A stretch of 64,000 nucleotides of DNA, from the NCBI GenBank assembly GCA_965178125.1, contig OZ237766.1, forward strand, positions 124,001 to 188,000. Reading direction: 5' to 3'. Below, piece by piece: positions 2,859-48,977 of the stretch. The notes under the pieces were generated by a model. It searched no databases. It saw only the letters and a program-made list of their open reading frames with translations, and had not been told where the DNA came from. Position numbers and translations under genes: made by a program. The stretch's first letter is position 1. Each line of letters starts with the position of its first letter. Source of the DNA: Bilabrum cf. latius. Lineage: Eukaryota.

Positions 2859-5800
2859 ATGGGCAGACGCAGCGCCTGTAGAACCAATTCAGTCACTCGG
2901 ACAAGAAGGCAGAGGATCCGGGCTCGCCGAATGGCCCGTGGTTTCGGAGCCGCAGCAGAGAAGAAGACTCTGTTTCTATCCGATGATGGGGAGGAAACCG
3001 GCAAAACAGCCGATGCAGACATCACTACAGAACAAAGAGCTGTGTTTTCACCTGTAGCAATGCTGAATGATGAGTCAGATAAGACAGGTGTTGCTTCACC
3101 ACCCCGTGAACGCGCCACGAGCTTCACCTCATGCGCTGGTTCGTTTGCGAGAGGAACGACAATGTGAGCATTCGGTGCCCAATATTGGGAGCACTGCGTG
3201 GTTTTTTTGTAGAATAGCGATTGTCGGGCCCTGCAAGCCACCGTTGCCGCTTAAGGCAGCCTTTGGAATGCAGTTCTGGATTGATACAATCGGCTTGACA
3301 TGCACCGGTATTGCACCCAGTCTACCGCGAAAGCAACATGATGATCGTCCGCACCGTTTCTCCGCAACTCACCACAACCTCGCAGGTTTGCCGCTAGAGC
3401 TGGTGCCCTGGCCTGGGGCATATCCCGGGCCGCGGCCGTGGGCGCAGGCTCGGCGGCATGGCACGGTGCCCTGGCCCTGGGGTCGCAGGGTGTTGCCGTG
3501 CTGACCGCCGCTGCTTCGGGGGCGGCTGCAACCAGCGGACAGGGAGTTGCCGGGGATGGCCTTGCAGGTCCTGATCCTGCCACCTCGCTGCAGCCTGTAG
3601 CAGGTGCTGGTGCTCGTGCTGGTGCTGGAATCGGGTTTGGCAGCGATGCAGGGTCTGTCGCGAGTGGAGTCACGCTCGTCGGTAGAATGGCCGCATCGTC
3701 ATCATCCATGCCGTCTTCGAGCCTGCCTTCATCTTCTTCAACTTCGCTGCGGGCGGTTACTGCCCTCGCCCGCCGCACCGATTCACTGGAAGCCGCGGTG
3801 CGAGAGCTGCTGGGCGCATTCAGGGAACAGGGCAAGGCCCTGCGGCAGCTGCTGCGGGCGCAAGAATCGGCGGAGGCGTCTGGTGCCGATCGCAATGTGA
3901 AGAGTGATGCCATCGAGCAGGCTCGGTACAGCATGATGGAGGCGGAGACGGACCTGGCCAGGGCTGTAGCAGCGTCTGCCAGCAAGGGGAAGGGGGGGAG
4001 CAGGGGGATGGGGAGAAGGCTCGCAGGTGCCATGGAGCGCGTGCGTGAAGCTGCCATGGGTCGGGAGCAGAGCAGGGAGTAGGAAGATGATGTCGCCGAT
4101 GATGTCGCTGGTGTTGGCGATACAGAGGAGTGCGAAGGGGAGGGGTGGGCAGTCGCGGGCAACTCCCGAGTGGATGGGCCCCGCGTGCGCTTCTCATTCG
4201 CTGGAGATGAAGAAGAAGAGGAGGAGGAGGAGGAGGAGGAGGAGGAGGAAGAGGGCGGTGATAAGGACAGGCCGGCAGAGGAAGGGAAAGGGGAAGTCGA
4301 GAATGCAAGTGGCCGGGACCAGCAGCCATAGGGATTGGTGCCATGCTAGCCTGCTGAACCCGAGGCTGCTGCTGCTGCTGCTAGATTCCGCAAGATGCTG
4401 GCAATGGGCATCCCACGGTGGCAGGTGGAGAGCAAGATGCGGCTCCAGGGGCTGGACCCGTCGTGCCTCGACCTCGACGGAAGCCAAGGTACCAGCACCA
4501 GCACCACAACGGCAACAGCTGCCGGTAGTAGCAATGACGATAGTGTTGATGCAGCGCGGGATCTACCGGCCAAGGCTGCCTCCCAGGGTGCCCCCTCTCT
4601 CCCCCCGGGGAGGAGGGGACCCCCCAGGAGGGGACTGCCTGCCAATCGGGTGCATGGACCCCAGAAAAAGCCGGGTAGAGCACCGCCACCCAAGTGCGCG
4701 GTGGGGGGCCCGTCTGTTTCCTCAGCCTCAGCTGCGGCATCATCATCATCATCTTCATCGTCGGGAGGCGGAGGAGGCATGGGTTCCTTGCTTGCGCAGA
4801 TCAAGGCAGCGGGCGCCAAGCGGAACCTCAAGAAGCGCGGCGCCAAGCAATCGTCGTCGAAGAAGGAAGGCAAGGCCAAGGACAAGGCCAAGGCCACCTC
4901 CGGAGGGGGCACGCTAATGGCGTAGGTGGCTGCGGCTGCTCTGAAGCGGCAGCAGAGGATCAGCAGGAGGCAACAGAAGAAGGAGAGCAAGCCACACGGA
5001 AACAATGCCGAGCGTGACGGTGATGAGGGCGAGGGCGAGGACGAGGACACCCCCCGCACTAGGAGGCAGAAACGACTGCGGGCATCGAGGGGAGGCGGCA
5101 ATGCCAGCGGGAGGTTCCCTTCCTCCTCCTCCTCCTCCTCCTCGGGCCGGTCGTTCAAATCAAAGTCCAGATCCGGCTCAGGGTCCGACCTTGGCCCCCC
5201 CGTGTTCTCTCCATCGATGAAGGATCGTATCTTAGGCACTGCCCTGGGCCAGCGCATGGTGCTGCAGCAGGAGGTGGCACGGCAGGCCAAGGGGATCGGG
5301 GCCAGCAGGCGAGGGGCGGGCGCGGGCATGGGGCTGGAGGGCGCGGACTCGCCTTCGAGCGTCTGGAGCGCATCCACGGACAACACTGACACTCGTCACA
5401 CCGGTGCCGTGATGCGCAATTACGCCGACATGGCGGTGGCGGAGCAGCGCCGGAGGATGGGGCAGGGGCTGCCGGGCGGGCTGGGGTCTCCGTTGGGCCG
5501 CGGGGCCGATGGTGTGACGGGTTCTGCTGCTGCTAGGAGCGGAGCGGAGCATGGGGATGCGTTGGGTGATGACTGTACCGTGGCTAGTGTGACGAGTGCG
5601 GTAGGCAGCCCCGCATCCGTGCGAGGCCACTCCCCAGGCCGCATGGGGGCGGAGGCGTACAACAACAAGAAGACGAAGCAAGTGGAGGAGGAGGAGGAGG
5701 AGAAGGGAATGGGCGAGTCTTCGTCTTCGTCTTCATCTTCATCCTCTTCCTCGTCCTCCTCTAGTCTGCGGGCGAGGCTGGCCAAGCTCTAGCAATCAGC

Positions 5801-6647
5801 GGCGGTGCAGCCACCCAAGACTCGGAGCAGGAGCAGCTCAAGGAACAAGAGCAGAGGCGCAGCGGGGATTGCGTGCCAAGACAAGGCCCATGCCAAGCAG
5901 CACACACAGGCTCAGGTTCAGGGGCAGTCGCAGAAAAAAACCGCCCGCCGCGGTGTCGTTCCTAGGGACGTGGGCGACTCGGACTCGGAGCCGGAAGGTA
6001 TTTCCGATTCCGAGTTCGTGCCCATGGATGCCTCGGGCACATTCAAAAACGCAGGGGGGCTCGCCGGTACCAGCCAAGGTTCCTTTGCGCGGCGGCGACG
6101 GGGCACGAAGCGCATGTCGCCAGACACTGCAGCAGCAGCAGCGGGCAAGGGAGGGGATCAGGATGGGAAGCAACCTGCGGGCAAGGGAGACGTCCTCGCA
6201 CGGCTCACTCGTCACACTATCAGCTCCTCTCGAAAGCGCAGGAGAACAGAGTCCAAGACCGGTGGAGCAACGGCGCCGCGCACGCCAGGTTCCGCAGTCA
6301 ACAAGCAGTCCTCGGCTGGCTCGGCCATGACCAAGGGGAAGAGCACAGGCAAGAGGAACAGAGGCAAGGGCAGTGGCAGGGCTGGTGGCTTGCTTCACTT
6401 GTCCTCACCTATCGGCAGCCGAGCGCTGCTTCGGAGTATCCCCAAGAGCAGCACGGGGTCTCCCCTGAGGGAGCTAAGGGGGGATGCTGTGGGGGTGACC
6501 CCGCAAGGGGGGGGCAAGGGTGTCCCCCGACTCTCTCTCCTCTCTGGACAGGGATCAGGATCAGCTGGTGCGGCTGGGCTGAGGCGAAGGGCAGGGGTTA
6601 AGGCAGGGGCGGGGGGAACGGGGCAGGTGGCTGGAGCGGAGGACTGA
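2859..6647 (+). CDS. Large low-complexity protein with a CCDC53/WASHC3-like helical motif and WH2-like motifs (putative actin regulator)
   Basis: ATG 2859. Intron 3164-3385 restores the frame. One frame continues through TAGs at 4080, 4329, 4347, 4923 and 5790 to TGA 6645-6647. Motifs: RFRKMLAMGIPRWQVESKMRLQGLDPSCLD, SLLAQIKAAGAKRNLKK and TLMA*VAAAALKR. Confidence 0.65.
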
Positions 6648-6770
6648 TGTACTTATCCGATGGACTGGCAGACCGATTTCTTGCTTGCTGTAGGTCCGTT
6701 CTGGAGTATCACATTCACCACTACGACGGCCATCGGCCAACCGGTGCTTTCAGAGTCTGCCATGGCTCAG

Positions 6771-7236
6771 TCACGGATGCCAGCTGTCTGCAATCACCAT
6801 AGGCATGAGGTTTGGGTGCAGTGCTAGCCTATCCACGAAAGGCTGCGAGCCCTTGGTGCCTTCGCTGTCCTGAATAGCAACTCCACTGCTCTCTCTTGCA
6901 ACTTCAAGGTCCGTTTGAGCACCTCGCAAGGCATCGCATGCGGCCTGCATTGGACCCACCTACTGTTTACCATGCACTGAATTGCGATGCACTTCGCACG
7001 CCTCCGCCCAGGCCCCCCACGGGCTGTCTTCTTGCCCCCACATGATCGGCTGGGCGTGGTCCTGAAGCGCGAACCGCTGGGATTGCAGCGCCGTCTTCAG
7101 GGCCCTCCTGCCTGCCCACAGAGAGGACGGCGATTGCCTTTGCCCCTGTGCACGCCGATTGGCTTGGGGCAGGCCAAGAGGGATGGACAGGGGCATTTCC
7201 AGCGTGCTGTTCCTCGCATGCTGCCCAAATCTGCCG

Positions 7237-7297
<61 letters not shown>

Positions 7298-12155: not shown

Positions 12156-12788
12156 ATGTCTCAAACAGCACCTGCCCCAGCTCCTGCGCCCCAGGCAGAT
12201 ACCGTAAAGCCGGCCACCGTCGTTGTCATTGCGGCACCCGCCACTGGAGGCGCAGCTAGCACGGACTTTAAGTACTCCCTTTGCGGGTGCGTTTCCAACA
12301 TTGAAATGTGCTGTGCCGCGTGGTGCTTCTGCGGCTGGCCCTGCCTGTACTCCCAGGTCGGCAGCAGGATGGGCTACTATCCTATCTGGGCCGAGGACTT
12401 TTCCTCTGCCTTCATGCGCATGTGCATCCTCATCGGGGTGGGCCTGCTGGCGGCCATTCTCGCCAACATTGGAACAACGACTGGCACGCCCGCTCTTAAC
12501 CTGATCGCCCAGATCATCGATTACATCCTCGCTATCGTGCTGCTCATCAACGGCTTCCTCATGCGCACCACCCTCCGCGAGAAGCTGGGCATGCCCTCCA
12601 GCACAGTGTGCGACTGCCTGACCGTGTGGTGCTGCAGCTGCTGCTCCTGGGTGCAGATGGGCCGCGAGGTGGACGTCAAGACGCCCTGGGGGATGTCGGA
12701 GCAGCAGGAAGGCCTGGATTCTCGGATCCAGGCCAGGGGCGGAGGGGCGGGTGCACCAGCAGCCGGTAATCGGGTGGCGGCGGTGTGA
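12156..12788 (+). CDS. PLAC8 family Cys-rich membrane protein, copy 2
   Basis: Near-identical paralog of copy 1 (DFKYSLCGCVSNIEMCC...). No internal TAG. Stop is TGA. Confidence 0.88.
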   Translation: MSQTAPAPAPAPQADTVKPATVVVIAAPATGGAASTDFKYSLCGCVSNIEMCCAAWCFCGWPCLYSQVGSRMGYYPIWAEDFSSAFMRMCILIGVGLLAAILANIGTTTGTPALNLIAQIIDYILAIVLLINGFLMRTTLREKLGMPSSTVCDCLTVWCCSCCSWVQMGREVDVKTPWGMSEQQEGLDSRIQARGGGAGAPAAGNRVAAV

Positions 12789-13469
12789 TGAGTGTGCCAT
12801 GGTGAAAAGATGAAGGTTAATCCACTGGATTGAGTTAGGTCCGTGATCCAGGATTTTGATGGACCAGAGACTTGATTGCGCACATGTGGCAGTGCGCATT
12901 GGCGTGGATTGAAGTCAAAATTTACCTGTGGGTAGCTACGCCAGAAGGCTTTGGCGCTGGATACGGTTAACTGATGTACAGCGTGAAAATGAACGCTACA
13001 TTCCAAGGCGGTCCGGGAGGACTTTGCCAGCCTGGCTGAAGGGGCCGCCAAAAACAATAACCTCGCCGTGGCGATCGCCAACGTCAAGCTAGGGTTGGCT
13101 CAGAACGGGCAGCAGGACGGGGTGCCGGCAGCGGGCGCCGGAGGGAACGTGAATGCTGACGCTCCCCAGGGGGAAATGGGACCCAGGGTGGAGCTTAGGT
13201 GGGTTAGGCTATTGCAGTTGAAGCGTGAAATCTGGTAGGTCCCGGGCTATCGTTCCAGAATCTGCATTCCAGATATGGATGTCTTGTCGTGATAGCGTAC
13301 GGTTTTGGGTTCCCAGGTTCCGTTTTCATCGCGCGGCGACAATACGGAGGAAAAAATGTACATGTCGAAAATGTGCCCCCCGCGATCTCAGCAGCTAGAA
13401 GAGCTATGAAGATGATTGAAACTGTTTTGGGACGGCCGACCTACGTTTTCCTACTAGTAGGCCTACAAC

Positions 13470-15074
13470 TCAGCGCCCCGATCCGGACGCGGCACCTCCT
13501 TCATCTGGGGCTCTGTAGAACGGGCTCGCCTGCCCCATCAGGGAGTCCAGCCAGTCCTTCTTGTCGTCTGCCGTCAGGCACTCGAACTGGAACACCCGCT
13601 TCGGGTCGGGGCACGGCTCGTCACCCGCGGTTTTAAAGGCGCGTTCTGCCCTCTGGGGGATGGGCACCAGTCTGAATTCCGTATCCGAGTCCTCCATGGG
13701 CTCGATCTTGTAGTTGTCCACGTCGATGTACAGGTCTTTCTGCGGCTCCCTCTCGTCTGCCTTCTCCTTTGTGGCATAGTAGGCGAGCAGGCCATCGGCC
13801 AGCTGCAGCCACCTCCTCTTCTTGCTCTTGGAGGAGAAGAACCCGCTGCCGCCGCCCTCCTTCATCACCCAGCCCCCGTGGTTGGTGTACTGCCGCTGGG
13901 CCACTGACATGAGCTCCACCTCCGTCAGCACCTCCTCGGGCGGCAGCGGCGCCGCCACACCCGCGGGGATCGGATCAGAGGGAGACGCGTCCCCGTCGTA
14001 GTCCGCCGGTTTGCCCACCGACACTTCCCCGGTGAGCTTGTGCTCGTAGGCGTCCTGCCCCCCTTGCGTCACCTTGCGCCATACGGGGTCGTACACCTTG
14101 CCAGACTCGCCGAATTCTGCGGGGCGCGCCCAGCAAGTCTCGGCCGTGCTGCGAGTGTGAAGATTCTTTTTGGTGTGACGAGTGCACAGTGGCAGGCAGG
14201 CGCAGGCACAAGCAATGTGAGGCAACGGCGATTCTACGCTGCAGCCTCGGCGGCAGCAGGACAAGGTTACTATTGGAGGCAGAGCGCTTACCGCATGTTG
14301 ATGTAGTAGAGTCTTTTCTGTTCCGGGTCGAATTCCTCCACCCACTTGGGCCCCAGGGCGTCGTCCTCCTCGCCGGCGCCCGCTCGCCCATCGTCGGACG
14401 CGTCGGGCGGGCCGTCACGGCGAGACCGGAAGCGGCGATTCCACCAGAATGTCTTGCCAGTGGCAAACTCGATGAGTTCGACCCACTTGGAGTCCCGGAT
14501 GGTGTCCTTGTTCACGTGGTAGTCGCGGGACAGGACGGGCATGTTACCGGTGTAATAATCGAACGCTGTGGGGCCAGCAGCCACGCCAGGCAGGGGCATG
14601 TGGAATTCCTGCATGTCAAGTAGTGCTTCAAAGATGTGTGGTTCTGGTGCGTTTGCCATTGGTCGATGGCACCTCGCTGTGCTCATTGAAGCTGACCCGA
14701 CCACCGCGAGGGCGACAGGCCAGCGTGATCAGGAACAAGCCTTGGTCTGGCAATAAGAGCTAATTATTTTGTTGGCTCGCATGCACATGATCCTTCGTCA
14801 ATTGCCAGTAATTCAGAGTTCGGGCTAGCAGCAATCTTACCTTCGATACCACGGGCAGGTTGCCACTGAACAGGTTCCAGGCGGGCATACCGTGCCTGTA
14901 TCCAATCGGTGGCTCAATTTTGTGCATACTATGTGACCTTTTGATCTTGCCGTCGGACATGCTGGAGACTGGTGGGTCCTCAGATGGTTTCCATTTCCCG
15001 AGCGAGGCTGGGATTGCGGAACTGAATCGCTGCGCGGCGCCGCGAAGCCGGTGCGCATGGTTTTTATCCTTCAT
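13470..15074 (-). CDS. WW-domain and PH-domain protein (exons 15074-14841, 14608-14292, 14148-13470)
   Basis: GT-AG introns restore the frame. WW-like segments: KWVELIEFATGKTFWWNRR, KWVEEFDPEQKRLYYINMRTAETCWARP, WRKVTQGGQDAYEHKLTGEVSVGKP. PH domain: GWVMKEGGG...KRRWLQLADGLLAYY...FQFECLTADDKKDWLDSL. Stop is TGA. Confidence 0.8.
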
Positions 15075-15105: not shown

Positions 15106-18100
15106 TCAGTCCTAATCATCATCATCATCGTCATTATCGCCATCGTCCTCCAAAATCCCCTGCACCCCGCCGCTGTAGGCGTCCCGCCCGTCGACCCGCA
15201 CTCGCAGCGTGCCCCCAGGCGACATGTCTGCGTCCAGCCGACGACTGCCCTGACGAACACTCGCCCTGGCCACCCCACCCGGTCCGGCTGACCCGGTTGG
15301 TTCCTGCCCTGACCCACCAGCACCATTCCCCTTCCCTTTCGCACCCCCCTTGCCCCTGCCCCTGCCCCTACCCCTTCCCTTGCCCCTTGTTCCTGCTGGC
15401 TTGCCCTTGCCCTTCCGCTCCTTCAGAAGCCGATGCATATAGGCGTCGTGCCCGCTCCTGTCGTACGATCGGAGCATACCCGTGGAATGCCTCACGGCAC
15501 CCAAGCTGTCCCGACCCACGCCATCCTCGCCATCGTCCACACTCGTCACACCCGGCGGACCCCCATCGTCGAAGCGTACCTTCCGCCTCACGGAATCACC
15601 GACGGCACCAGCGGAGGACTCCCCCGAAGTTTCGCTGGTTTGAGCACCCGACTCTGATGTTGCAGTACCCTGCACCCTGCTCTTGCTCCGTACCCTGCCC
15701 CCGCCCGTGCTGGCCTCGGGTGGCGCGATTCGGGCCAGCAGCAGCGCGCTGGCCTTGCGAGCGGACCTCGCGCCCGCACTCGTCACACCGGATACGTCCC
15801 CCACAGAAGACACGTCCCCGAATGACACCGACATGAGACCGCTCTCACTCGTCATACCGCCCTCGACAGCTTCACCCTCGCGCATGCCGTCATCGTGCTC
15901 CCGCTCTTCTTGCTCTTCTTCTTCCGCACCATCCTATCGATCGGCTGCACTGCCTGCATTGTCTTTGCCCGATTGATCCCCCTCATCACCATCTCCATCC
16001 CCCCCCTCAGAATCACCGCCTGTGGCTCCCTTCCCAGTCCCGCTGCTGGGAGCCTGATCACCTGGGATCTCTTGACCAACCTCGGCAACTGTCCCGCTAG
16101 CAGGATCACTCGTCGCACCAGCATCGCCACCCGTGACGGCAGCTGCTGCGGACTCTTCGCTCGCAGATTGTGCTTGCTGTTGTGCTCGTGCCTGCTGCTC
16201 GGGCGGCGTAGCCTCCTGTGCACCCGCTGCACTCGTCACGCGCTTCCTCTTTGATCCGATCCTCCCGTCCGCTAGCCAGTCGTCACCTCCCTGTCCCCCC
16301 ACTGCATGTGCCTCCAACACCTGCCTCACCTGCGTGCGCCGCTTCTTGGTCCCCTTGCCCGCCAGCCGACCCACAGCCGGTGCAGTACCGGCACGGTCAG
16401 GAGCGGCAGGCCGCGAGCTGCCACCACTCGTGGGGGCGAGCTTCCTAGATAAAGATGAAGATGAAGTCGAAGTCGATCCCACCTGCCTGCCTGTGCCCCT
16501 GCCACTGCCACTGTCCTTTGCCCCCGCCTCCCCTTCCATGCGATCGCCCCACTCCTGCCTGCACCTGTCCGCGCCCCACCCCTCACTCGTCAGGTGGGCC
16601 AGCGACACGGACCGCACTGGGCTGCCCCCTGCCACTGCCGCTGCCGCTGCCTGCGCCAGACACATGGTCTGCAGTGTCTCTGCCACCTGGGCCCAGAAAC
16701 CAGGCCTGGAGGGGTCGTGCGACCTGAACGCTTCGTACAGGAGGTCTCGGCGGGTGGCATCCGCGGGGGATGTGGCTCCACCCATGCCCCTCTCCTTGCC
16801 TTCGCCCCCCTATCCCCCGTTTGAACGCGCCTCCATGGGCTGGCTCTGGCTGCCCGACGGGCCTGAGTCGCCCCCTTTCCCTTGCTCCTTGGGCTTCTCC
16901 AAGGCATCGCCGTAGGTCTGCGAGTCCATCACGTCAGCATCTTCGCCTTTGTTCTCGTCATTGTTCGTTGTGGTGGTGCTGGCGTTGGCTGCACCCGCTG
17001 CTGCAGCCGCGACAGCCGCAGCGGCAGCAGCAGCAGCACGCCTTGTGCTCTTGGTCCTCGCGCCTGCCTTGGCCCCTGCACCGCTCTTGCCCCCTGGTCC
17101 TCGTCCTCGTCCCCCGCCCTTGCCCTTGCCCCTGCTCTTGCCCTTTGCCTTGCCCTTGCCCTTGCCCTTGCCCTTGCCCTTGCCCCTCCCTCGTCCCCTG
17201 CCCCTACTACCGCTTGCAGCAGCTGCAGCCCCCATCTCCTCCTCCTTCTCCTCCTCCTCATTCTCCTCCTCCAAGTGACTCTCCTCCCCCCCACTGCCGG
17301 ACTCACTCCCATCCTTACCCGCCGCATCCATCACCTCGTCCACGACATGCGCACCCACCCCATCACCCTCCCCCTGTACATGCCTACCTTCCTCCCCGGA
17401 GTCTGCCTCGGACCCCCGCCTCACTGCTAGCCGAGAACTGCGTCTGTCACCCGCCCCTTTTCGACCACGAGACCCACTGCTCTCTCTCGACTGTTTTCCC
17501 TCCTTGGGTTTGGAGCCCTGCCCCTGCATCTTTCCGCTGCCACGGGCACTGCCACGAGTTGCCGCTCCCCGCCCCCTCGATTTGTTCCCTCGACCACGAC
17601 CGTCTGCCTATTTTGTCTCCGAATCCACGATATCCTAACCCGACCCGCTACAGCCATGGCTCGAGTTGGAGGTGCTGTCGCTTCCGCTTCCTCTGGTGCC
17701 CGCGCTCAAAGACGATCCGCGTGCCCCCTTGCGCGTGAGTCGGCCTGTGGATCTCTTCTCCTCCTACTTCTCCGTCTACGTCTCCTTCTGCGTCTGCTGC
17801 TTCTTTTTCTTGGAATTTCCACCTTTTGCGCCTTTCTCCGCCCCAGCACTCGCCTTTGCTCTGCTGCCGCCCTCGCTGCTGACCCTCCTGGCCCCGCCCC
17901 GATTCCCACCCCTCGGAGCCTTTGATTGACCACCACTCTCCGACGAGGGACCACCACTCTCCTCCCCCTCATCTTTCCCCCCGGCCTCCGCCCTCAGCTG
18001 CAGCACGGCCCCCTCGGGCCTCTGCGCGATCCTCTCAGACTCCCAGTACTTGAGCCGGCCCGTCCGGAGCCGCCCCCTGAGGCTCCTACCCACCCGCACG

Positions 18101-20487: not shown

Positions 20488-20699
20488 TCCATGGGAAATC
20501 GAGATGAGGTCCCTGCTGTTAGATGCCAAAGTTGCGGCTACCGTTTGAACGAAGCGAGACGAACCCGGAAAGGAACCACAAAGAACCACAGCGAATCCAA
20601 ACGAACCCATAATATCTCAGCCACGTCCACCGAACTGTCAAGTATCCTGGCCCCTACACGATCATGGCTTCTAGAATCACAATGCGAAGAACATTCAGT

Positions 20700-25660: not shown

Positions 25661-25857
25661 CGATTGCACAGTACCAGCAATAATTTAATGTAAGTATATA
25701 CGTGGCGCACACTGAACTCAATCCTACTACTGCTCCCGAATATCCACGCCACAACGGCTTCGAGCAGGTGTGACAAGTGGCCAACGCACCGGCGCACCAC
25801 CGGCTGAAGCACAGCGCACAGAATATAGTCTTAAGATTTCACATAGAACGCTGTTCA

Positions 25858-34599: not shown

Positions 34600-35478
34600 T
34601 GCGGTATGCGGTGCCCAGGACGGCTATGAGTTGGGCAATATCGTGAGCACCAGGACGGGGCCTGGTGAGCACTTTGAAGGTTTTGCACTGCAGCTAGAGC
34701 TACTATTAATATGTATTCGCACACAGATCTGTGGTGCTATTGGCACAACCCGAGGATGGTGGCATAGTTGACAATGAACTTCACTTCGACATTGGTTGTG
34801 CTTCACTTCCTAGAGGCCATTCCAAAGAGTGCCAGTGGAATTGGACAGGTGTGCTTTTCCAACCAGCAGTGGTCCCGACGGGCAATCCGGATGGGATGTA
34901 TCCAAAGAAGGCTGATTCAACATAGCTAACGTTTAAATCTATGTCCAGATATAGAAGTATTATCCGGATACTCTTAGTTGATGACAAGTCCCAAGAGATG
35001 GAGAACCATCAGAGAAGCCGGGGTGGTAAAAGGGAGACACGAAATGACACCCTGGATAGCTATCGTACAATGGCACCTACATGCAATACATGGCGCCAAG
35101 GGCCCGTATGACCGCACAACAGCCGCATAAATCGGCCATTGTCTAAATCGTACGCACCCTCGCCATATCCATGCACGAAACATCAGGCCAGGCCAGGCAA
35201 GCCAACCCAGCCGGCGTCCGGATTGGCAGCAGCAAGATTCAACCACGCGTCGCCTAAAACGCCGGCTGGCCCAAACCATACAGCTAGTAGAGCGCATAAT
35301 CGCATCGTCGTTACAGCCATTGCGAGTCTACGCTTGGCCCAGCGTGAAAGCGCTAATATTCACCCAACGGCGCCATCGCCGGACCCAGCTACCCTTGCAT
35401 CACCACAGTCTCAATACATCACAGTTCGCCACACACACACCCCTCCCCCGCACCACCTATTTCACTCGTCACACCGTC

Positions 35479-36823: not shown

Positions 36824-38567
36824 TCAAGCCTTCCCGGAAGCCGCCTTGGCCTGCCTGCCAGAGAGCACGTACACTCCCGCGAGAGTGAGCAAGACACCGC
36901 AGGGAAACCCCATGGCCTGCTGGGCCGTGAACCCCTCGAATTCCTTGAAATAAATGCCCCCGCTCACGATCGTCGCCGCCATGAAAATCGCCGAGAAGAC
37001 CGGTACCACCAGCAAAGAGTCGAACATCTGCAACCCCCTGGCCATGTAGTGCTGCTGCCCCACGATGCTCACCCCAGTCCCCGCGATGAGCAGGTAGGTC
37101 ATCCAGTACACGAACTGGTTCTCCCCACGGACGGTAGTCTTCACGATCTCAGTCACGCTCTTGGCGAACACCACTGTCTGGGCCCCCACGAGGGCAGCGA
37201 GGGTGCCGTAGAAGACAGGGTGCAACCGAGCAAACGGCTGGTAGGCGGCGGGCGGCATCTGCAGCGCCCCCCGGAGCACAGCCAGCTTGCGGGCCTTCTC
37301 CTCCTTCGCCGATAGATGTGACGAGTGAGAACTGGCCCCTCCGGCCGCAGCACCTTCGAGTCCCGTGTTCTCTGAGGCGGAGAGCATTCGCGAGCTATTG
37401 CCCCGGGCTGCAGCCGGCGCCGAAGCCCCGTTGCCCGGATCGCTAGACGGTTGGTTGCCTTGCTGCTGCCCATGATGCTGCTGCCCAGTAATGCCGGCGC
37501 TGTGCTCGCTTGGTCCCTCGGACGAAGCGAGGAGGCCGATCTGCTCGATCGACTGGCCTGTGGCGCTGCTGCCGCGGCGCCGAGGCGAATTGGTCACCGA
37601 GAGGGTGCCTTTCTCCTCGTCCCTGCCCCCAGCGCCGCCTGCTCCCATCGGAGCAAGTGCCCGGTGCTCTCCCACGCCGAGGCCGGGGCTAGCGCCCCCA
37701 TTGCCCAGCGATCGCGACCCGCCGCGCTACTGTCTCCCAGCAGAAGCAGCCCGTCCTCTCCTATCTGCCCCTGTCCCAATCGCACCCGCCTGCTCCAAAA
37801 TGCGAGCTTCGGTCTCTTTCGCGGCTTGCGAGGAAGCGAGCACGTGCTCAGCTGATTTTGTGAAGTTATGCATATACAGCACCGCACCTCCAACTACAAG
37901 CAAGTACATGATCATCGGTGCCCTTAAATACAGCGCCTTGAGCTGTGGGAGGGTGAAGCATCGCTAGCTCCTCGCACCAAACGACAGAGCCAGTAGACCG
38001 CCGATGACTACCAATCCCGTCCCAGCCAGATCCACGAGCTGCAACCCCTCCCCAAGGAAAAATACCGCAAACACTACATTAGAAACAGGCGATAGAGCCC
38101 CGGTAGGAGCCACGAGGCTTTGTGGAGCCAATGCAAACGAGACTACATCCAGGATGGCCGCCAGGATGACAAGGCACATCCCGCCCCACCACCGCCACTG
38201 CTGGGTGTAGTCCATGCGCTCTGCAAGCGGCTGCGCAAATAATACAACAAGGCATACTGAGCTTCGTCGTCAATCGATAATGTTTGGGTGCTGCAGAGGA
38301 AGCTGATTTCGTTGGCTCACTTTTCGCTCTTCCATCATGAAAGAGTATTTCTGCAGGTTGACCCCAAAGTTTGAAGCGACCGATGCAATACAGCCTACAA
38401 GCACGCCCTGCAACCCCAACGAGAGATATATGGGTTGCATATGATCGGGTCAGGTCCAGGCACGGATTGCTGCAGCAGCTACACCGATTAACACTCACTA
38501 TCATAACCTACTCAGTGCTATGCTCGGTACTAGACCCGCAATGGGGCGATACATGATTATCCTCCAT
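36824..38567 (-). CDS. NIPA-family magnesium transporter (exons 38567-38499, 38407-38321, 38230-36824)
   Basis: Motifs NFGVNLQKYS, WRWWGGMCLVILAAILDVVSFALAPQSLVAPTG, GAQTVVFAKSV, MARGLQMFDSLLVVPVF and SGGIYFKEF. TAGs at 38508, 37964 and 37727. Stop is TGA. Confidence 0.88.
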
Positions 38568-38854: not shown

Positions 38855-41800
38855 TTATCCCTGCTCAGGCCCTCTCGACTTGGCTCTGCGCCCCAGCCTC
38901 CCTGCCAGATACCGCATCGCCAAGTCACCCTCACCCCCGTTGCTCTCGCCAGGCCCCCCCAGGCCCAGCCCCACCCCGGGAGACCCCGCGGAATCGCACC
39001 TGCGAGGGGGGCCCCTCTCCTCCCCCGCCGCGCGCCTCGTCATGCGGGCCCCATCCGCCCTCGCCGCCGTCTGCAGGAAATTGTGGGCTGCGGCAGCGCC
39101 GCCCAAGTGCAGCGCACTGCGGAACACCCCGTGCAGCTGCCGCCGGCGCCGCGCCTCACCTCCAACGGAACCATACTCGTCCTCGATCCCCATCCCTGTG
39201 GATGTGTCCCGTGCCGTCCCCGACTCGGAGCCGAAAAACGACACCTCGCTGGGGGCGTTTGGGATGGCGATAGGGGGCGAGGCGGGCGCCTCCGAGTCGA
39301 CCACCGCGGCGCCCTCCTTGCTCCAGCGCCTGTCCGGCCCCTCCTACTCTGCACCACCGTGCGATGCATGCGATGAATCTCTCCAGCCGAACGGTGACCC
39401 GCGGGGGTCAGCGCCCCCCCCCGTCCCCTAGCGAGACCCCCGGGACTCCCTCCACAGCGGGGTCACGGGGGGATTCTGCCACCCCTGCCCGTCCTGGCCC
39501 CAACCCCCCTCGCCCACGGCACCCCCCGCCATGTGCTGAAGCTGCTCCTGCTCCCCGCCGACGCCGAGCTGCCAGTCTGGGCTAGCCCGCTCCGATGCAC
39601 TCGTCACACGGGCGAGCCCCAGCTCCGCCGCGATCCCAGCCGCCGAGTCGTACAGGTCATCCTCATCATCGTGGCCGTGGCCGGCGGGGTTGGCGAAACG
39701 ATCCTAGTCATACTCCTCCTGCTCCTAGCATTGGTCCCCAGGCTGCCCTGATATAGCCTCAGCACCAGCCTCTCTTGCTTCTGCCTGCGCCGCTGCCGCC
39801 GCCGCCACGGGGTTCCACATGAAGTCAGGGGCATCGGCTCCGAATCCTGGGGAGGCTACATCTGCCCCGGCCCCGTCATGGCCCACGTCCTCGGCTCCCT
39901 CGGGAGGGGCCATCGAGCCAAGCAGACCAGCCGACAGACCCGCTACATCTGCCCCATCCCCGTCCTGACCCACGTCCTCGGCTCCCTCGGGAGGGGCCAT
40001 CGAGCCAAGCAGACCAGCCGACAGACCCGCTACATCTGCCCCATCCCCGTCCTGACCCACGTCCTCGGCTCCCTCGGGAGGGGCCATCGAGCCAAGCAGA
40101 CCAGCCGACAGACCCGCTACATCTGCCCCATCCCCGTCCTGGCCCACGTCCTCGGCTCCCTCGGGAGGGGCCATCGAGCCAAGCAGACCAGCCGACAGAC
40201 CCGCTACATCTGCCCCATCCCCGTCCTGGCCCACGTCCTCGGCTCCCTCGGGAGGGGCCATCGAGCCAAGCAGACCAGCCGACAGACCCGCTACATCTGC
40301 CCCATCCCCGTCCTGGCCCACGTCCTCGGCTCCCTCGGGAGGGGCCATCGAGCCAAGCAGACCAGCCGACAGACCCGCTACATCTGCCCCATCCCCGTCC
40401 TGGCCCACGTCCTCGGCTCCCTCGGGAGGGGCCATCGAGCCAAGCAGACCAGCCGACAGACCCGCTACATCTGCCCCATCCCCGTCCTGGCCCACGTCCT
40501 CGGCTCCCTCGGGAGGGGCCATCGAGCCAAGCAGACCAGCCGACAGACCCGCTACATCTGCCCCATCCCCGTCCTGGCCCACGTCCTCGGCTCCCTCGGG
40601 AGGGGCCATCGAGCCAAGCAGACCAGCCGACAGACCCGCTACATCTGCCCCATTGGCAGTCCCAGCCCCCGCCCCCGCCCCCGCCCCAGCCCCAGCCCCC
40701 GGGCAAGCACGCCCACTGCCCCCCGGCGCCCCATCGCTCGCCGCGCGGCCCATCCCCGATCGACTCCTCAGTCGATGCAGGGTCATGGCGCCAGCCCCGG
40801 GAAGCACCTGCTAGGAGACGGACTCGGATAGTGTCCTCCTGGGCGCATCTGGCGCAAGTCCCAGGCCAACGCCGATGGGCAGCTGGGGCACTGGGGGCCT
40901 CACCCTCGACCTTCTCGTGTCCGGGTGCCCGTGCCTTGATAGCCCGGCACCGGCACCAGCACCAGCACCAGCACCATGGAGGCCGTGCTGCCCCCTGCTG
41001 CCCGACTGCACGGACATCAGGGGCCCAGTGGCCGCCGCCCTGGCACGCTATCTCTCGAGCCCGTGTGGCACGCTGGGCTGTCTACAAGATTCGACACCCT
41101 ATTGCCCCTGCCCCGGCCCCTGCCTCTGCCCCTGCCCCGGCTGCTGTACTAGCTCCGAGTCGTACACGTGACCCTTGCTCCTGCGGATGCCCGGGGCCCA
41201 AAACCCGTGGACCCCCCGCAGTGGGGACGCCACCCCCTGAGACCCCCTGGATCCGGAGCTGCCAGCCGCCAGGCCCGCCACACGCAGGCACGCATCGTCT
41301 GCCATCGAGTCCTCTTCGGCGTACCCCCTCGGGGTGTGCACGAGCGAGGGGTCCCGGCTGCGGCTCGACGCACTAGCACCACCATGCGATGCATCTGCAC
41401 CGTGTGACGAGTGTACGGAGTCGCTGCCGGCCCTGCTCCAGGCCTTTGCCGCCCGTTGTGCCCTGGCCGCCGACTGCGCCTTTGCCCTCCTCCGGGAGCC
41501 CCCTCCCTTGCTGGACCGCTTCAGTCGGTGCCTACCCCCAGCCGACCCAGACCACACCGTCGAGGTTGCGACCGATCCGGGCCCGCCCCGACCAGTGCCG
41601 CCGCCTCTCACCGACCCCGAGGCAGATCCGCGGCCAGAGGCACGGGTGCTCGCGCTGGTGCTGCTGCAGGCGCCGGGGGACCGGGCCCCGCCCGATTCGC
41701 GGAACATGACAGCCTTGTGCTGTGTCCTGCGGACCCCGACCCCCGCCCCCCCCCTACCTGCATCTCCACGTCTACCTCCATCTTCCCCGACCAGGCTGTC

Positions 41801-44800
41801 TTTGCTGAGGCTGCGGCCGCTCATGCCCGCAATTGACCTGCCAGCGTCGGAGGGGGCCGACAGCTGACGCGCGTGGTCGCTGGGGCGAGGGGCCAGGAGC
41901 CGCCTGGGGGACCCGGAGCCGGAGCCGGACCCGGAGCCGGACAGCTGGTGGTGTGGCGAGTGGGCTTCGAGGCCGGCCTCATCGGAGTCGGAGGACAGCC
42001 CGCCCACGATCTGGATGCCGCTGCCACCACCACCGACACCGACCAGACCAGCCAGACCTTCGCTGCCCTCGTCATTCCGACCCACACCCATCCCCTCTCC
42101 TACTCCTGCGCCCACCTCCGCAGAACTTCTCCTGCTGATGCTCCTCACGGCCATGGGCAGCACCGCGCCCACACCGCCCGCCATGCTGCGGCGGCTGTCT
42201 TCCGTGGGGCAGCGCGAGCTGGAGGCGGATCCGGAGCGAGAATCAGAACCCGACCCGGATGCCGAAGCAGAGGCAGTCGTGTCGTGCGGAACATCGTCGT
42301 GCGCGGCACCCCTTGACATCTCCTGCCACGCCCCGCCGAAACCGTCGTCAGAATGCATCGCACTGCCGCGCTCCGCAGCGTCCCCGGGCACGCGGATGGT
42401 CAGGGACGGCGGGGGCAGCAGAGCCTGGGCAAGCGCGGCGTGTGACGAGTGACCGGCCCCGCCCGGTCCACCGGACCCCATGAGGAGCCCGTTCTGCAGC
42501 AGACTGGCAGAGGGCAGTGCCGCGTCACCTTGCAGTGCACCCTGGTGCTCCGAGTCGGCGGCGAGCTGGTCGGCGTGGTCGGGCGACCCCCACCTGCTGG
42601 GGGACGTGGCCCCGCTCCGGGACGCACTCGTCACATGGTGGGGCGCAGGCACGGGGGGAGGGGCCAGCCGGGGCTGCCACGAGGAGTCCACCGAGGGGCC
42701 GTGCGCACCATCGTGCGATGCACCCGCCGCCAGCTGCATCTCATCGTCCTGTGCCCCGTCCATGTCCAGCCGGCTGGAACCGGCGCCATCTCCGGCAGGC
42801 ACCTTCGGCTCCGAGTTCTCTTCCGAGGGCTCCTTGCCCGGTCCCCCGCGACCCCCGGGTGCATGTGCCGGGGACAGCCCGTTGTCCTGTGAGGAGGTCT
42901 CGCGGGCCATATCCTGGCCAGTGGAGGCGGATGCCTTGGAGGACCACCGGGAGCGGCCAGCTGCCTTGGCAGCCGCACCGCCATCGGCAGCAGCTACAAC
43001 CTTGCTGTCCGGATCGACTTCCCTGTCCTCTGCCGCTCCCGAGCTCGCAGACCTAGATCCAGACCCAGACCCAGACCCAGACCCAGACCCGTTCACTGTG
43101 GCGGGGCACGGGCCACGGCCATCCCGATGACCGTGCTCGCGTTCATCCCCAACTTGTGTTCCATGGATATCTTGATCTGCGGCAGAGAAATGCCGAGCCT
43201 CTTCTGCCTGCTGCCCTTGCCCTTGCCCTTGGTTCCTGCCGCTCTCCCTCGCTGCCGCCTCGCCCCTGCTGCCATCCTAGCGGCGGCTGGCGGACGGGCC
43301 CAGCACAAGCGGGCTGAAGGGAACATCCGCGGCGGATTCCATGAGAGGTGTGACGAGTGAGTCCCCGCGGCGTTCCCGCTGATGTCCCTTTGACCCCACA
43401 CCGGGGGAATACCCGGAGCCGGAAGTGGCGGACGCGACGAAGCGGCGGCCCAGGGGCGGTGTCCCATGGCGCACGCCGCCGGTTTGACCACCCCCCAGGC
43501 CCAGCACGGACCCCACCCCGAACGACCCCAGGCCCCTTCCCCTCAGGGCCGGGCTGTTCCCTGCGCTCCCCGCGGCCATGGCAGCTGCCCCCGCCGCCTC
43601 CACGCTCCCCGGAATCGCCGCCACCAGCGATGTCCTCCTCCTCGAGGCCCCCGCGCGGCGATGGGCCATCCGCATGGCCTTGGAGGCGGGCGAGTCGCTC
43701 TGCGAGTGGGACCGGGGCCGGGGGGAGCCAAGCCCGCTCCCCAGCAGCGCTGAGGCCACGGAGGCGGCGGGGGAGTGCGCGGCGTGGCGCGCGGCGCCCA
43801 GCGACTCCGATGCGGAACCGGCCTCTAGCCCCAGGGCCCTAGCGCTGCCTCCGCTCTCCCGCCCTTCGCCTGCTGGTCCTGAGCGAACGTTCCTTCGAGC
43901 CACAGCGAGCCGCAGCGCCTGCGGCCTGGCCGGCCGCTGGCCCGGGGACCCGCCACCCGACGGCTCCCGGCTGGTAGGGGACCGGGATGGTCGCCCGCCG
44001 GCGCCGCGCATTCTAGCGGAACCTGTGTTTCCGGAGGGGAGTGCCAGGGTGTCCGGCGATCGCTCCCTTGTGCGATCGGTTCCAGCGGCCCCTCCTTCCT
44101 GGTCCAGATCCGATCCTCTCCGGCCCCCGCCAGCAGCTGACGCAGACGCTGACGCACTCGCCGAGGGAGCGGCCGAGGCGGCCACGGTCCTGGGAGAGGT
44201 CTGCTCCTGAGATTGCTCCTGGGTGTGCTAGTGCAACGGGGGGACTGCCGGGTCTGCTTCCTCTGGTGATGCCACGGGAGCGGTCCGGGCCGCTGGCGCA
44301 CGCAGGTGAAGGGGAGCGCGGGCTTGGGCACGAGCTGACGGTTGTATGGAAGACTCCGCGACTGGGTCCCTAGGCTGGCCATGTCCCCGCACCCCGGGCC
44401 CCTCGTGCCCCTCGTGCCTCTGGTTCGACTGGTGAGGCCTGGCAGGTGAGGCATGGGCGGAGGGCGCCGCGCTGGCGGTCTGCCTGCTCTCGATCTCCCT
44501 CTGCTCCGTCCGGGCCGAGGACCGGCTTCCCCGAGGGGTGCAGGCCTCCCCCCCTGGGAGCGCATGATCCAAGGGGGGGAGGCCGAAGCCTTCCTGGGAC
44601 CCGAACACGTAGCCTTGCTGCAAGCGGCTGTCGAGGGCGAGGCCGAGGGTCTGGGCGGCGGCGCCGCGCATTTCATGGTTCCGCAACCGGGCGTCGTGTC
44701 CTGCACGGCCTATGCGGTGGTCGGCGCTCGAGGCATGGGGACCCGCCGCCCCTGCTGCAGACCCACTACTAGCATCTGCTGCTGCTCCCCCGCTCGAGCC

Positions 44801-46418: not shown

Positions 46419-46568
46419 CGCGAGGTTCTACGACTTGTCAGCAGGTTGTCGTCGAAGATCCAGACTCGTCGCAAATATGCACCTTTCGTAGACTATACCA
46501 GACAGTTCGGAGTGAAAAAAACATTGTGGCAACTGGCGAGAAGCAATCCTTGCGTGGCCAACGGGAGC

Positions 46569-48977
46569 ATGCTGCGAGAGGACGACGATTTTGTGTCTTC
46601 CTGTGGTGGCGATGACAGAATCGGACCAGTGGCAGCACCGAAACCGGGAGACGCAGATGTTGTTTCCCGTTGTCCCATCTGCAGCAGCGCTCCGGGGCAA
46701 ATTTCTCTAGGAGACCAGCGCTTGTGCAGCAAGTGTTTTGCAAGCAAAGTTCAGTCGCATGTTCATTATGCTCTAGGGGAGGTGTTCAGCTCTCACAAGC
46801 TGAACCGCACCGTGGTTCTTGCGTTCTCTGGCAACTTCGGCAGCTTTGCCACAACCTCTGGCGTGGCTTCATGGCACAGATCTAGAAGCGAGGGAATTGC
46901 AAGGTTCATTCAGGGTCAATTGGCTCGCTTCGATTCCGAAGATGCTGAGAAGGCGCGAAGCAGTCGTTTGGCAGGATGGGCTGCGGAAGACGTCGCCTTG
47001 CTGCGGCGCTACTTGGCCACACGTAGCAGCCAGTCGCATGACAGCGCCAGCTCTGTAGATAGTAAGAGTAGCACCAAAGTTGATGTTACATTACTGCCTG
47101 TTCTCAGCGTGCCTTCTCGCCTGATCCGCGCGCTGCGGCCTCCCGCTCGCCTCTCGCTGCCCCCTCGCGTGGCGCTGCTTCACGTGGACTGCACTGCCAT
47201 CGACGCGATCGTTCGGGGGCCTCGGGGGCGGGCATCCGAGGGTGCACTGCGCGGTGGTGCATCGCGGGGTGAAGTGTCCGTTCGGCAGGCGGCGGAGCAT
47301 GCCAGGCAGGCGGCGGGTGGGATCGGGCCTGCCCTCAGGCTGTTCCAGTGCAGGCTCGAGGACGTGTTCCTGCCGGCTGTTCCGGGGCATCATGATGTTG
47401 CAATGGGTGAAAGAATGGGTCGTGCTAGTGGGACAGGATCTAGAGTAAGTAGGTAGATTATGCCCCTGGTCGAGCTGGAATGGGGAGGCAAGACCGAAGT
47501 GGGTGGACAGGGGCAGCAAGCGGCAGGTGCGGGCGCATCATCTAAAGCAGCCGGCGAAACATTGCCAGCTGCATCTAGCGCAAGCATTGATTCGCGGGGC
47601 GATGTAAGAGCTAGGAGTCCCAGGTCCGAGTCCCGGGTGCTAGCCCTTCACGCCCTGCTTGGATCGCTTGGGCACGCGGACGCGCAGGAGAGGATGCTGC
47701 GCGTGCTGCACGGCATTGCGCTGCGGCGGGCGGCACTTGCTGTGGACGCACTGCTGAGGGGGGAGGAGGCATGCGGGGATGAGGACGAGGATGGCCGAAG
47801 GGGGGAGAGCAGGAAGGCAGCAGCCGAATAGCACGGTGGGGGTGGTGGATCCGTCCCCAGTGCGGGGTATGCCCCTGCCCATGCCCATGCCCCCCTCCCG
47901 GTGCTGGTGCTCAGCACCAATGGGGACAAGGCAGCGGAGCTTACCATGACTTCGCTTGCCGAGGGCACCGGGTATGGCGTGGCGGAGGGGTCCAAGGTCT
48001 TAGATGCACGGCACTGCGGCGCGGATGCAACTGCAGCCGGGGGCGCCCCCGGCCCCTTGTTGCTGAGACCGCTGCTGGGGCTGGGTCGACTGGACCTGGA
48101 GGCGTACGGCAGGCTTTGCGAGTTCGAACCTGTACCCAAGCAGCGAACCTTCTTGGCGAACCTTCGCCGGCCCCGCTCGAGCGTGGCGCAGGTCGCAGCC
48201 AAGTTCGTCCGCACGCTGCAGGACGGTTTCGTGTCCACTCGTCACGCGGTGCGGCGCACCATGGACAAGCTGAAGGAACCACCTTTGCTCGTCACACAGG
48301 AAGGGTTAGGATCTGCCGCAGAGAGTGGTGTGACGAGTGAGGGACCCGTACTGTGTCCGTTGTGCGGGGAATTCCAGTCGCCTTTCGATTCCGAGTTAAG
48401 CAAGCAATCCGGGGAATCATTCCGGGCTGGGACAGCAGAGGGTCCTCCTTCCGGTTCCGCTGCATTGTTGCGCGGCGCCTCCCTCTCACTGCTTCCGGTT
48501 TGCTGCCACGCCTGCCGCGTGATGCTGCGGGAGGCCGGACACGCCTCGGCCGGGGAACTGTCCCGCGTGGGGCACTACGGGGCGCGTTCGGTGGCTGTGA
48601 CGAGTGCGCGGGGAACACGGGTCGGCGAGGCGGCAGTTGACGGGGGTAGTGGGGCTCTTGGCGACGGTGTGACGAGTGATTCGTCCGTGGCCAGTCTGCT
48701 GCCCCCGTCCGTGCGTGCAGGCGTCGTGTTGGGGTGGGCGGCGGTGAGCGAGGGGGTCAGCAGCGGCGTGGCCAGTGTGACGAGTGCGCGCTGCGAGGGC
48801 ACCAGCGGGAGCGCAGAGTCAGGGCGGGACGGCAGCGGTGGTGGAAAGGGGTTTGCCGGTGCAGGCGGCCGGGGCCCATCTTCGGCGTGGACCCGGCAGC
48901 AGATGCTAGCGTCGATAGGAGAATTCCTGCTCGACGATGATGGCGGTGCTGCCGGGGGTGGCAAGACCGGAAGCTGA
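46569..48977 (+). CDS. CTU2: Cytoplasmic tRNA 2-thiolation protein 2 (CTU2/Ncs2)-like
   Basis: N-terminal CPIC..LCSKCF, VVLAFSGNFGS, LLRPLLGL..DLEAY, SVAQVAAKFVRTLQDGFVSTRHAVRRTMDKL, LCPLCG, CCHACR and C-terminal IGEFLLDDD. TAGs at 47454 and 47829. Stop is TGA. Confidence 0.8.

Follow-up and report, generated by a model that had tools for sequence, protein, structure and literature searches.

A hyper-abundant 12-bp word overlaid on the protein-coding DNA of a protist in which TAG behaves as a sense codon

Main finding

A 64,000-nt window of nuclear DNA from Bilabrum cf. latius (assembly GCA_965178125.1, contig OZ237766.1, positions 124,001 to 188,000; all coordinates below are those of the window) carries the 12-mer GTGTGACGAGTG in far more copies than expected. 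The copies lie mainly inside open reading frames (ORFs), on both strands and in four frames, and the word recurs in metagenome contigs of a related organism. The reading which we favour, tentatively and at somewhat less than even confidence, is that a sequence-specific factor or biased repair keeps this word of double-stranded DNA abundant, with copies being born and decaying.

Abundance and edges of the word

Exact copies of GTGTGACGAGTG or of its reverse complement, CACTCGTCACAC (the word is not palindromic), were found 17 times in the window, as against a mean of 0.01 and a maximum of 1 in 100 dinucleotide-preserving shuffles. A further 16 copies carried one mismatch, and the total of 33 compares with 0.36 expected and a maximum of 2 in the shuffles (Table 1). 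An annotation made earlier from the letters of the window alone (the original prediction) had listed the 17 exact copies and 11 of those with one mismatch, all of which were present, and five more were added at 12783, 22808, 25768, 32485 and 41951. Counts by mismatch class (0, 1, 2 and 3) were 17, 16, 10 and 34, and as the three-mismatch class is, by our own estimate, close to chance level, about 40 copies are taken to be real.

The core of the word is TGTGACGAGTG, and its 9-, 10-, 11- and 12-mer cores occurred 29, 26, 21 and 17 times in the window. Information content was 1.1-2.4 bits per position within the word and at most 0.28 bit outside it, so that the edges are abrupt. Flanks of +-40 nt looked unrelated, and flanks of +-120 nt with the word masked gave three similar pairs versus 0-5 in five control sets. 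A longer hidden element around the word was rejected on these grounds, together with the lack of any fixed distance between GTGTGACGAGTG and other words. The window copies are dispersed with unrelated flanks, and no tandem or simple-repeat architecture was seen at them.

Transitions made up 13 of the 16 one-mismatch copies, an excess which is a signature of decay. The first two bases (5' GT) were altered in eight of the 16 variants and the 3' GTG in one (G12>A at 23661). With respect to strand, 18 copies lay on the plus and 15 on the minus strand without a clear switch along the 64 kb, which bears out the claim that both orientations occur. Adjacent copies were ordered -/+ 11 times and +/- 10 times by hand count, and this near equality indicates that an inverted-repeat architecture is absent.

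Independence of the word from the encoded peptide

Sixteen exact and 14 one-mismatch copies were counted in gene models that treat TAG as a sense codon (see below), including the copy at 14173 which was later found to be intronic. Synonymous codons were shuffled 200 times within each gene, preserving both the protein and the codon usage, and left on average 0.095 exact and 1.29 one-mismatch copies; codon-order shuffles, likewise 200, left means of 0 and 0.17. The enrichment therefore survives a codon-preserving shuffle. Of 19 VTS tripeptides in the gene models, 16 were written GTGACGAGT, all five TRH tripeptides were written ACTCGTCAC, and AGT is a rare serine codon in these genes (148 of 1,701 Ser codons). 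Once the GTGACGAGT-coded cases were set aside, three VTS tripeptides were left versus about four expected from composition (our own arithmetic).

Twenty-nine of the 33 copies were coding (17 sense and 12 antisense, not different from 1:1) and four were non-coding (12783, 14173, 25768 and 35463). All 17 sense copies used one single frame, of the VTS type, and the antisense copies read as HSSH type (seven), TRH type (four) and LVT (one); VTS, TRH and HSSH had been named in the original prediction, and LVT is an addition. Five of the six frames of the word are free of stops. The remaining frame, GTG TGA CGA GTG, was used by no copy within the coding part of any gene model. The presence of coding copies on both strands and in four frames fits recognition of duplex DNA better than it fits an RNA signal.

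Two further roles were considered and rejected. A recoding function, with the TGA of the stop-containing frame as a site of read-through or frameshifting, was dropped because coding copies do not use that frame and because the single in-frame stops of the long frames are TAG, not the TGA of the word. A role as a 5' splice site was rejected, as the four confirmed introns begin GTGAG or GGTGAG and do not involve the word.

Two claims of the original prediction, namely that the word is not a peptide motif and that it is overlaid on coding DNA in the manner of highly iterated palindrome 1 (HIP1), DNA uptake sequences (DUS) and Chi, are supported by the synonymous-codon shuffles, by the use of four frames and both strands, by the abrupt edges and by the recurrence in a second genome. 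The prediction stands in part only. The roles that it proposed for the word, as a chromatin, methyltransferase or binding-protein site or as a sequence protected from mutation, are conjectural. It missed TAG as a sense codon, which alters the gene models, as well as the companion words and the fact that positions are not kept in an ortholog fragment.

Host organism and the reading of TAG

The G+C content of the window is 55-71%. Its 6-phosphogluconate dehydrogenase (6PGD) has its best named relatives among stramenopiles, being 70% identical to that of Cafeteria and 67-68% identical to those of oomycetes, and further relatives reach 87-89%; this one enzyme weakly suggests a stramenopile-like protist as the source organism. 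Contigs of the three runs X5 to X7 join across 36003>36098, 36267>36413, 36489>36622 and 46004>46192 (CT..AC ends), intervals which are GTGAG..CAG introns on the minus strand, and contigs of run X1 read through the two intervals for which pieces were listed. It is on this ground, and no other, that X5 to X7 are taken to be transcript assemblies (transcript-like contigs below). Eleven copies of GTGTGACGAGTG lie in pieces of X5 or X7 contigs without a differing letter.

Long frames in the window were interrupted by single in-frame stops, which in the Pfam-supported frames were TAG. Reading TAG as sense raised the number of codons in ORFs of at least 800 codons from 3,210 to 14,897, and reading TGA as sense gave only 6,745, though TGA is 1.7 times commoner than TAG. 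The score of the NIPA transporter rose from 78 to 127 bits when two TAGs (37964-37966 and 37727-37729) were read through. Past the TAG at 34072-34074 of the helicase gene, the frame continues through two further copies of the C-terminal repeat domain. Three copies of this domain of about 70 residues (..YN...L..AV..Y....LLEDL...G.L..DG....R.YWV.E) occupy 33700-34596, and no Pfam family covered it. In-frame TAGs were also present at 26907-26909 and 27630-27632 (EGF gene) and at 47454-47456 and 47829-47831 (CTU2-like gene), and transcript-like contigs cross in-frame TAGs unspliced. TAG thus behaves as a sense codon, and TAG-sense gene models were used, with 64 TAG in 16,129 codons; 16 of the 19 models end in TGA, which is partly so by construction.

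In an endonuclease III homolog from the metagenome contigs described below (L076), both core TAGs align to Gln of human NTHL1 (..RYQVLLSLMLSSQTKD..). At the level of this alignment TAG is shown to be decoded as glutamine in the related organism, and we infer the same for the organism of the window. Codes in which TAG specifies Gln are already known in other eukaryotes, as in a paper of 2017. Within the parts of the literature that were accessible, no report was found of a nuclear UAG/TAG = Gln code in stramenopiles or stramenopile-like organisms.

Distribution among genes, introns and non-coding DNA

Nine gene models carried the word at densities of 0.5-1.8 copies per kb, and nine others, 13.3 kb in total, carried none where about eight would be expected at the mean coding density (P ~2e-4 by our own arithmetic, copies within one gene not being independent). 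The latter were 6PGD, the methyltransferase gene, the EGF-repeat gene, two PLAC8 genes, two FMN-reductase exons, CCDC113 and ORF 59741-62386; the WW/PH gene model is also without a coding copy once 14173 is counted as intronic. No copy lies in those genes of the window that are tightly constrained. The carrier proteins are poor overall in hydrophobic residues (~20%).

The minus-strand gene at 13473-14700 encodes two WW domains and a PH domain, and removal of an intron at 14149-14291(-) with GTAAG..CAG ends restores the second WW domain (..LYYINMR joined to TAETCWARP..). The ends and the restored domain uphold the earlier claim that the copy at 14173 is intronic. The other non-coding assignment, of 35463 to a 3' untranslated region (UTR), is plausible only, as the copy lies just past a TGA within a transcript-like contig. 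Placement was not of the promoter type, 29 of the 33 copies lying inside ORFs, and the clusters at 48236-48775 and 41402-43348 occupy the 3' halves of genes, far from any start. When the helicase was compared with seven homologs, its copy at 32933 fell between conserved motifs; a homolog search with the helicase region returned distant relatives only (11 proteins). Scans of the window against Rfam and for tRNA genes gave no matches.

Two observations concern sequence near the copies. The tandem PLAC8 paralogs at 10712-11224 and 12123-12785 both end in TGA TGA within G T(G/T) TGA TGA GTG, which resembles GTGTGACGAGTG read in its stop-containing frame; a two-mismatch form lies at 11222 in the paralog. 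At about 39800-40800, ORF 38858-46294(-) contains nine tandem 87-nt units encoding GADVAGLSAGLLGSMAPPEGAEDVGQDGD, and in each of the four runs the summed contig depth of the adjoining bin at 40672-41338 was very high, as low-complexity sequence common to many loci would lead one to expect.

Table 1. Copies of GTGTGACGAGTG with at most one mismatch in the window, and companion words (obs/exp, occurrences observed/expected)
Form or word	Position	Strand	Location and reading
Exact	5390..5401	-	Antisense TRH, ORF 3345-6644(+)
Exact	5587..5598	+	Sense VTS, ORF 3345-6644(+)
Exact	6206..6217	-	Antisense TRH, ORF 3345-6644(+)
C7>T	12783..12794	+	Non-coding; overlaps TGA TGA stop of PLAC8 gene 12123-12785(+)
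Exact	14173..14184	+	Inside intron 14149-14291 of minus-strand WW/PH gene; antisense to transcript
Exact	15540..15551	-	Sense VTS, ORF 15109-20616(-)
Exact	15777..15788	-	Sense VTS, ORF 15109-20616(-)
G3>A	15846..15857	-	Sense, read MTS
T4>C	16107..16118	-	Sense, read ATS
T2>C	16230..16241	-	Sense VTS
A6>G	22808..22819	+	Antisense HSPH, ORF 21242-25684(-)
Exact	23218..23229	-	Sense VTS, ORF 21242-25684(-)
G12>A	23661..23672	+	Antisense TRH
Exact	24541..24552	-	Sense VTS
G8>A	25768..25779	+	Intergenic, between ORF 21242-25684 and EGF gene
Exact	29798..29809	+	Sense VTS, SF1 helicase ORF 29245-34596(+)
G1>C	32485..32496	-	Antisense HSSQ, SF1 helicase
T2>C	32933..32944	+	Sense VTS, SF1 helicase AAA_12 domain, start of 25-residue insert
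Exact	35463..35474	-	7 nt past TGA of ORF 35482-35883(-), in transcript-like contig; likely 3' UTR
G1>A	37316..37327	+	Antisense HSSH, long insert of NIPA transporter ORF 36827-38269(-)
Exact	39598..39609	-	Sense VTS, ORF 38858-46294(-)
Exact	41402..41413	+	Antisense HSSH, ORF 38858-46294(-)
A6>G	41951..41962	+	Antisense HSPH
Exact	42440..42451	+	Antisense HSSH
G1>A	42625..42636	-	Sense VTS
Exact	43348..43359	+	Antisense, read LVT
T2>C	48236..48247	-	Antisense TRH, CTU2-like ORF 46131-48974(+)
Exact	48328..48339	+	Sense VTS; other residues in ortholog fragment P0134, site ungapped
G1>C	48595..48606	+	Sense VTS
Exact	48667..48678	+	Sense VTS
Exact	48775..48786	+	Sense VTS
T2>G	50606..50617	-	Sense VTS, ORF 49512-53288(-)
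C7>T	51936..51947	+	Antisense HSSH, ORF 49512-53288(-)
GCGCGGCGCC	4835, 6272, 15032, 19140, 24206, 39145, 43789, 44000, 44463, 44660, 48470, 50351, 52514, 63937		Obs/exp: window 14/0.87, metagenome loci 21/0.43; often read RGA
CGGTTGCAACC			Obs/exp: window 10/0.03, metagenome loci 4/0.10
CCAGGGAACAA	22052, 22310, 22331, 26975, 27599, 30170, 32667, 51071		Obs/exp: window 8/0.03, metagenome loci 6/0; read REQ or QGT
GGTGCATCGCA(Y)	19799, 22974, 42714, 50275, 50800 (also 6983)		Obs/exp for GGTGCATCGCA: window 5/0.10, metagenome loci 9/0.07; always sense
GGTTGCAACC	2764, 19642, 21854, 22226, 22787, 28592, 29652		Seven copies; perfect palindrome

Recurrence in metagenome contigs of a related organism

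A scan of metagenome contigs for pairs of the 11-mer core separated by 61-91 nt gave at least 118 loci. Among the 118 loci listed, 24 had pairs with unrelated flanks and 94 failed this filter, those inspected among the latter being tandem or simple repeats of unrelated organisms. One assembly supplied 11 of the 24 and also a twelfth locus (L100) with copies in a tandem repeat; L077, from a second assembly, was 99.95% identical to part of L101. These 12 loci and L077 were used. No orthologous DNA was found between them and the window, and viral contigs gave a single match, to an AT-rich tandem repeat of no relevance.

The 12 loci comprise 56.7 kb at 55-63% G+C and hold 34 exact and five one-mismatch copies of GTGTGACGAGTG, which is their commonest 12-mer; their consensus extends to GGTGTGACGAGTGC, with G before the word in 27 of 34 and C after it in 25 of 34. 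The word is thus not restricted to the window, as it recurs in unrelated contigs of another assembly. Like the window, these loci contain long ORFs with in-frame TAG and at least four of the same additional over-abundant words, which lay outside the search pattern. G+C at third codon positions was 0.58 versus 0.74 in the window, and TAG made up 18% versus 8% of Gln codons. As the codon usage differs and the peculiarities are common to both, the loci are read as those of a related but different organism. Copies adjoin, and do not lie within, the conserved domains of endonuclease III, a Rad51 paralog and seipin. Most are read as VTS in a long open frame, with GVTSA as the dominant peptide, and an antisense pair in the p25-alpha gene of L101 is read as HSSH. 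In L075 two copies lie 15 nt apart.

Companion words

Further over-abundant words were counted in occurrences with unrelated flanks only, against an order-3 Markov background (Table 1). They lie mostly in ORFs and in few frames (VAT, (G)ASH and RGA). GCGCGGCGCC is usually accompanied by GCGGAACC at 11-23 nt in either orientation, as a bipartite element. The 10 window occurrences of the 11-mer CGGTTGCAACC include its reverse complement, and VAT is its only reading within ORFs. In GGTGCATCGCA(Y), which encodes G-A-S-H, the alanine codon is the rare GCA, and the peptide GASH(G/D)G recurs in many proteins of the metagenome loci. Palindromic or bipartite words are typical of protein-DNA recognition. 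The protist lineage, which appears to read TAG as Gln, has a small vocabulary of words of 10-12 bp, with GTGTGACGAGTG the most abundant among them.

Turnover in an ortholog fragment

An exhaustive protein search with the last 381 residues of the CTU2-like protein, a stretch that includes five copies, gave four matches, namely a distant CTU2 and three short fragments with identities of 63-82%; a word search with the C-terminal half found no homolog. The fragment P0134 aligned at 58% identity over 103 residues. At 48328 the window reads ESGVTSEGPV versus ARSLRSTTGPS in P0134, where the site is ungapped and is followed by a surplus of six residues in P0134. At 48595 P0134 ends ..GAHSEAEA where the window reads ..GARSVAVTSARG, and it reads LMRGAA where the window carries GCGCGGCGCC (48470). 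VTS was absent from P0134 at both alignable copy positions, with no four-residue indel, in an alignment of protein only that is locally weak. At this level, the positions of the word are shown not to be conserved in the single ortholog fragment.

Discussion

Under the reading that we favour, a sequence-specific factor would recognise 12-14 bp as duplex DNA, and recognition would be tied to a process maintaining the high copy number, through selection for site density or through biased repair or gene conversion (molecular drive). Copies would then be continually born and would decay by point mutation, and the word would be read in whichever frame yields tolerable residues (VTS, HSSH, TRH or LVT).

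Several observations weigh against this reading. The recognising factor is purely inferred, and a near-invariant 12-bp site is unusual for a transcription factor. Abundance throughout the genome is extrapolated from 64 kb and related contigs. The scan pattern requires two copies per locus and so inflates the density in the metagenome loci, where the pattern itself accounts for all but 10 of the 34 exact copies and four of these 10 sit in the tandem repeat of L100. The organism of P0134 may lack the word altogether, which limits the argument from turnover. Non-coding DNA accounts for about 24% of the window but has only four of the 33 copies, or 0.26 per kb versus 0.60 per kb in coding DNA (Poisson P ~0.05 by our own arithmetic, copies of the same gene not being independent), and yet sites selected for density should go most easily into such DNA; that it is poorer than the carrier ORFs remains unexplained under every reading. 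Finally, the surroundings of copies were not more hydrophilic or of lower complexity than random positions in the same genes (hydrophobic fraction 0.208 versus null 0.220/0.198; entropy test P 0.08/0.32). The idea that copies sit in disordered or low-complexity stretches is thus unsupported within genes, and it is solely the contrast between genes that argues for placement where the word is tolerated.

An explanation by in-frame micro-insertion, in which a 12- or 15-nt unit is pasted repeatedly into DNA, the process being selfish or templated (for instance, repair from one abundant template), comes next and is in our opinion unlikely. Insertions would survive in coding DNA because their length keeps the frame and five of the six frames are stop-free. 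The word has a length that is a multiple of three, with abrupt edges and unrelated flanks, and its exact copies with transition-type decay resemble dispersed repeats of common origin. Also in keeping with insertion are the disuse of the stop-containing frame in coding parts, the helicase copy at the start of an insert of 25 residues, the closely spaced copies of L075 and the positions not kept in P0134. However, P0134 aligns through 48328 without a four-residue gap and is longer, not shorter, there, albeit in a weak local alignment; no target-site duplication was seen, and the outer GTG..GTG do not co-vary. Frame use among the 29 coding copies is uneven (VTS 17, HSSH 7, TRH 4, LVT 1, CDE 0), and non-coding DNA has fewer copies instead of more. 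A second genome, differing in composition, has the word as well, which makes a single recent burst unlikely, and we know of no mechanism that inserts a fixed 12-mer.

An element acting at the RNA level, whether an mRNA site for an RNA-binding protein or small RNA or a translation signal, is improbable. It would account for the location of 29 of 33 copies in ORFs, with the intron copy and the likely 3' UTR copy also in transcribed sequence, for the one frame common to all 17 sense coding copies, for the long open VTS frame of most metagenome copies and for the 11 copies in transcript-like contigs. It is opposed by the 12 of 29 coding copies, and the intron copy, that are antisense to the transcript, by the antisense pair in the p25-alpha gene of L101, by the palindromic and bipartite companion words, which point to duplex DNA, and by the lack of an Rfam match in the window.

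The other candidates are contradicted by direct tests. Ends or excision footprints of transposons or miniature inverted-repeat transposable elements are very improbable: the reverse complement of the word begins CACTCG, which is reminiscent of CACTA-type termini, and some inverted pairs exist (5390(-)/5587(+) and 48236(-)/48328(+)), but the neighbour counts given above show no preference for inverted pairs, the bases alongside the pair 5390/5587 form no duplication, flanks share nothing past the word, and a footprint would be palindromic around a target duplication, which the word is not. We give next to no credence to a peptide motif, such as a G-V-T-S-A modification site, or to an artefact of sequencing or assembly, since VTS, though the commonest reading and dominant as GVTSA in the metagenome loci, is written by one nucleotide string in 16 of 19 cases beside three unrelated further peptides and non-coding copies, and an artefact is at odds with contigs of runs from two other studies, which show the word unchanged, and with its presence in independent metagenome assemblies.

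The duplex-DNA reading finds its closest likeness in the 12-mer DUS of Neisseria and the uptake signal sequences (USS) of Pasteurellaceae. In these an exact word of 9-12 bp occurs about once per 1-2 kb on both strands, within genes and in several frames, and they show one-mismatch decay, positional turnover, retention of the word between relatives and a bias towards tolerated peptides, a pattern like that found here; their abundance is explained by drive, not by function at each site. USS and DUS are, however, bacterial and need natural competence and an uptake receptor, whereas the host of GTGTGACGAGTG is a nuclear eukaryotic genome, and to our knowledge no uptake of this type is known in such genomes. 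Their terminator-like inverted pairs between genes were not seen for GTGTGACGAGTG (-/+ 11, +/- 10, with four of 33 copies non-coding), which, contrary to USS and DUS, is poorer and not richer in non-coding DNA.

Other systems are alike in part. HIP1 (GCGATCGC) of cyanobacteria is hyper-abundant, overlaid on coding DNA, kept across species and of debated function, but it is palindromic, as is the companion word GGTTGCAACC, whereas the main word is of 12 bp, non-palindromic and eukaryotic. Bacterial Chi and KOPS, too, are over-represented oligomers, which a motor or a repair enzyme reads on the DNA; they are strongly strand-skewed relative to replication, and 64 kb with 18 plus and 15 minus copies of GTGTGACGAGTG is too short a stretch for a proper comparison on this point. 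The 12-bp zinc-finger target words of the HIM-8/ZIM pairing centres and of MEX dosage compensation in C. elegans are highly enriched and read as duplex by dedicated proteins, but are confined to chromosome regions and mostly to non-coding or repeat DNA, whereas GTGTGACGAGTG is mainly in ORFs. Rickettsia palindromic elements are selfish nucleotide-level repeats tolerated and translated in frame within protein genes; they are 100-150 bp long with full-length similarity, whereas copies of GTGTGACGAGTG share only 12-14 bp.

The pattern is that of bacterial genome words, and what is new is its setting, the nuclear protein-coding DNA of a eukaryote. Full-text searches of the literature for GTGTGACGAGTG, as far as the texts could be seen, found it only as primers in unrelated papers, and within similar limits nothing comparable was found on over-represented words in eukaryotic coding DNA or on in-frame selfish short repeats. 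We know of no other hyper-abundant word inside eukaryotic genes. A bolder form of the favoured reading, possible but doubtful, is that this eukaryotic nuclear genome has a self-propagating vocabulary of DNA words, in which the 12-mer would be the first eukaryotic counterpart of USS, DUS and HIP1, with a copy in roughly every 1-2 kb of gene sequence, kept by a sequence-specific protein together with biased repair or conversion and shaping large repeat-rich proteins as VTS, HSSH and TRH, in a lineage where UAG would also have been reassigned to Gln.

In bacteria, hyper-abundant words have revealed uptake bias, recombination control and chromosome polarity. If drive or a dedicated DNA-binding factor does maintain the word described here, a process by which nucleotide-level events write sequence into proteins would become directly open to test. 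The shared set of words also marks a lineage; through it, metagenome contigs of a related uncultured organism were recognised and the reading of TAG as Gln came to light, which affects all gene predictions on genomes of this lineage.

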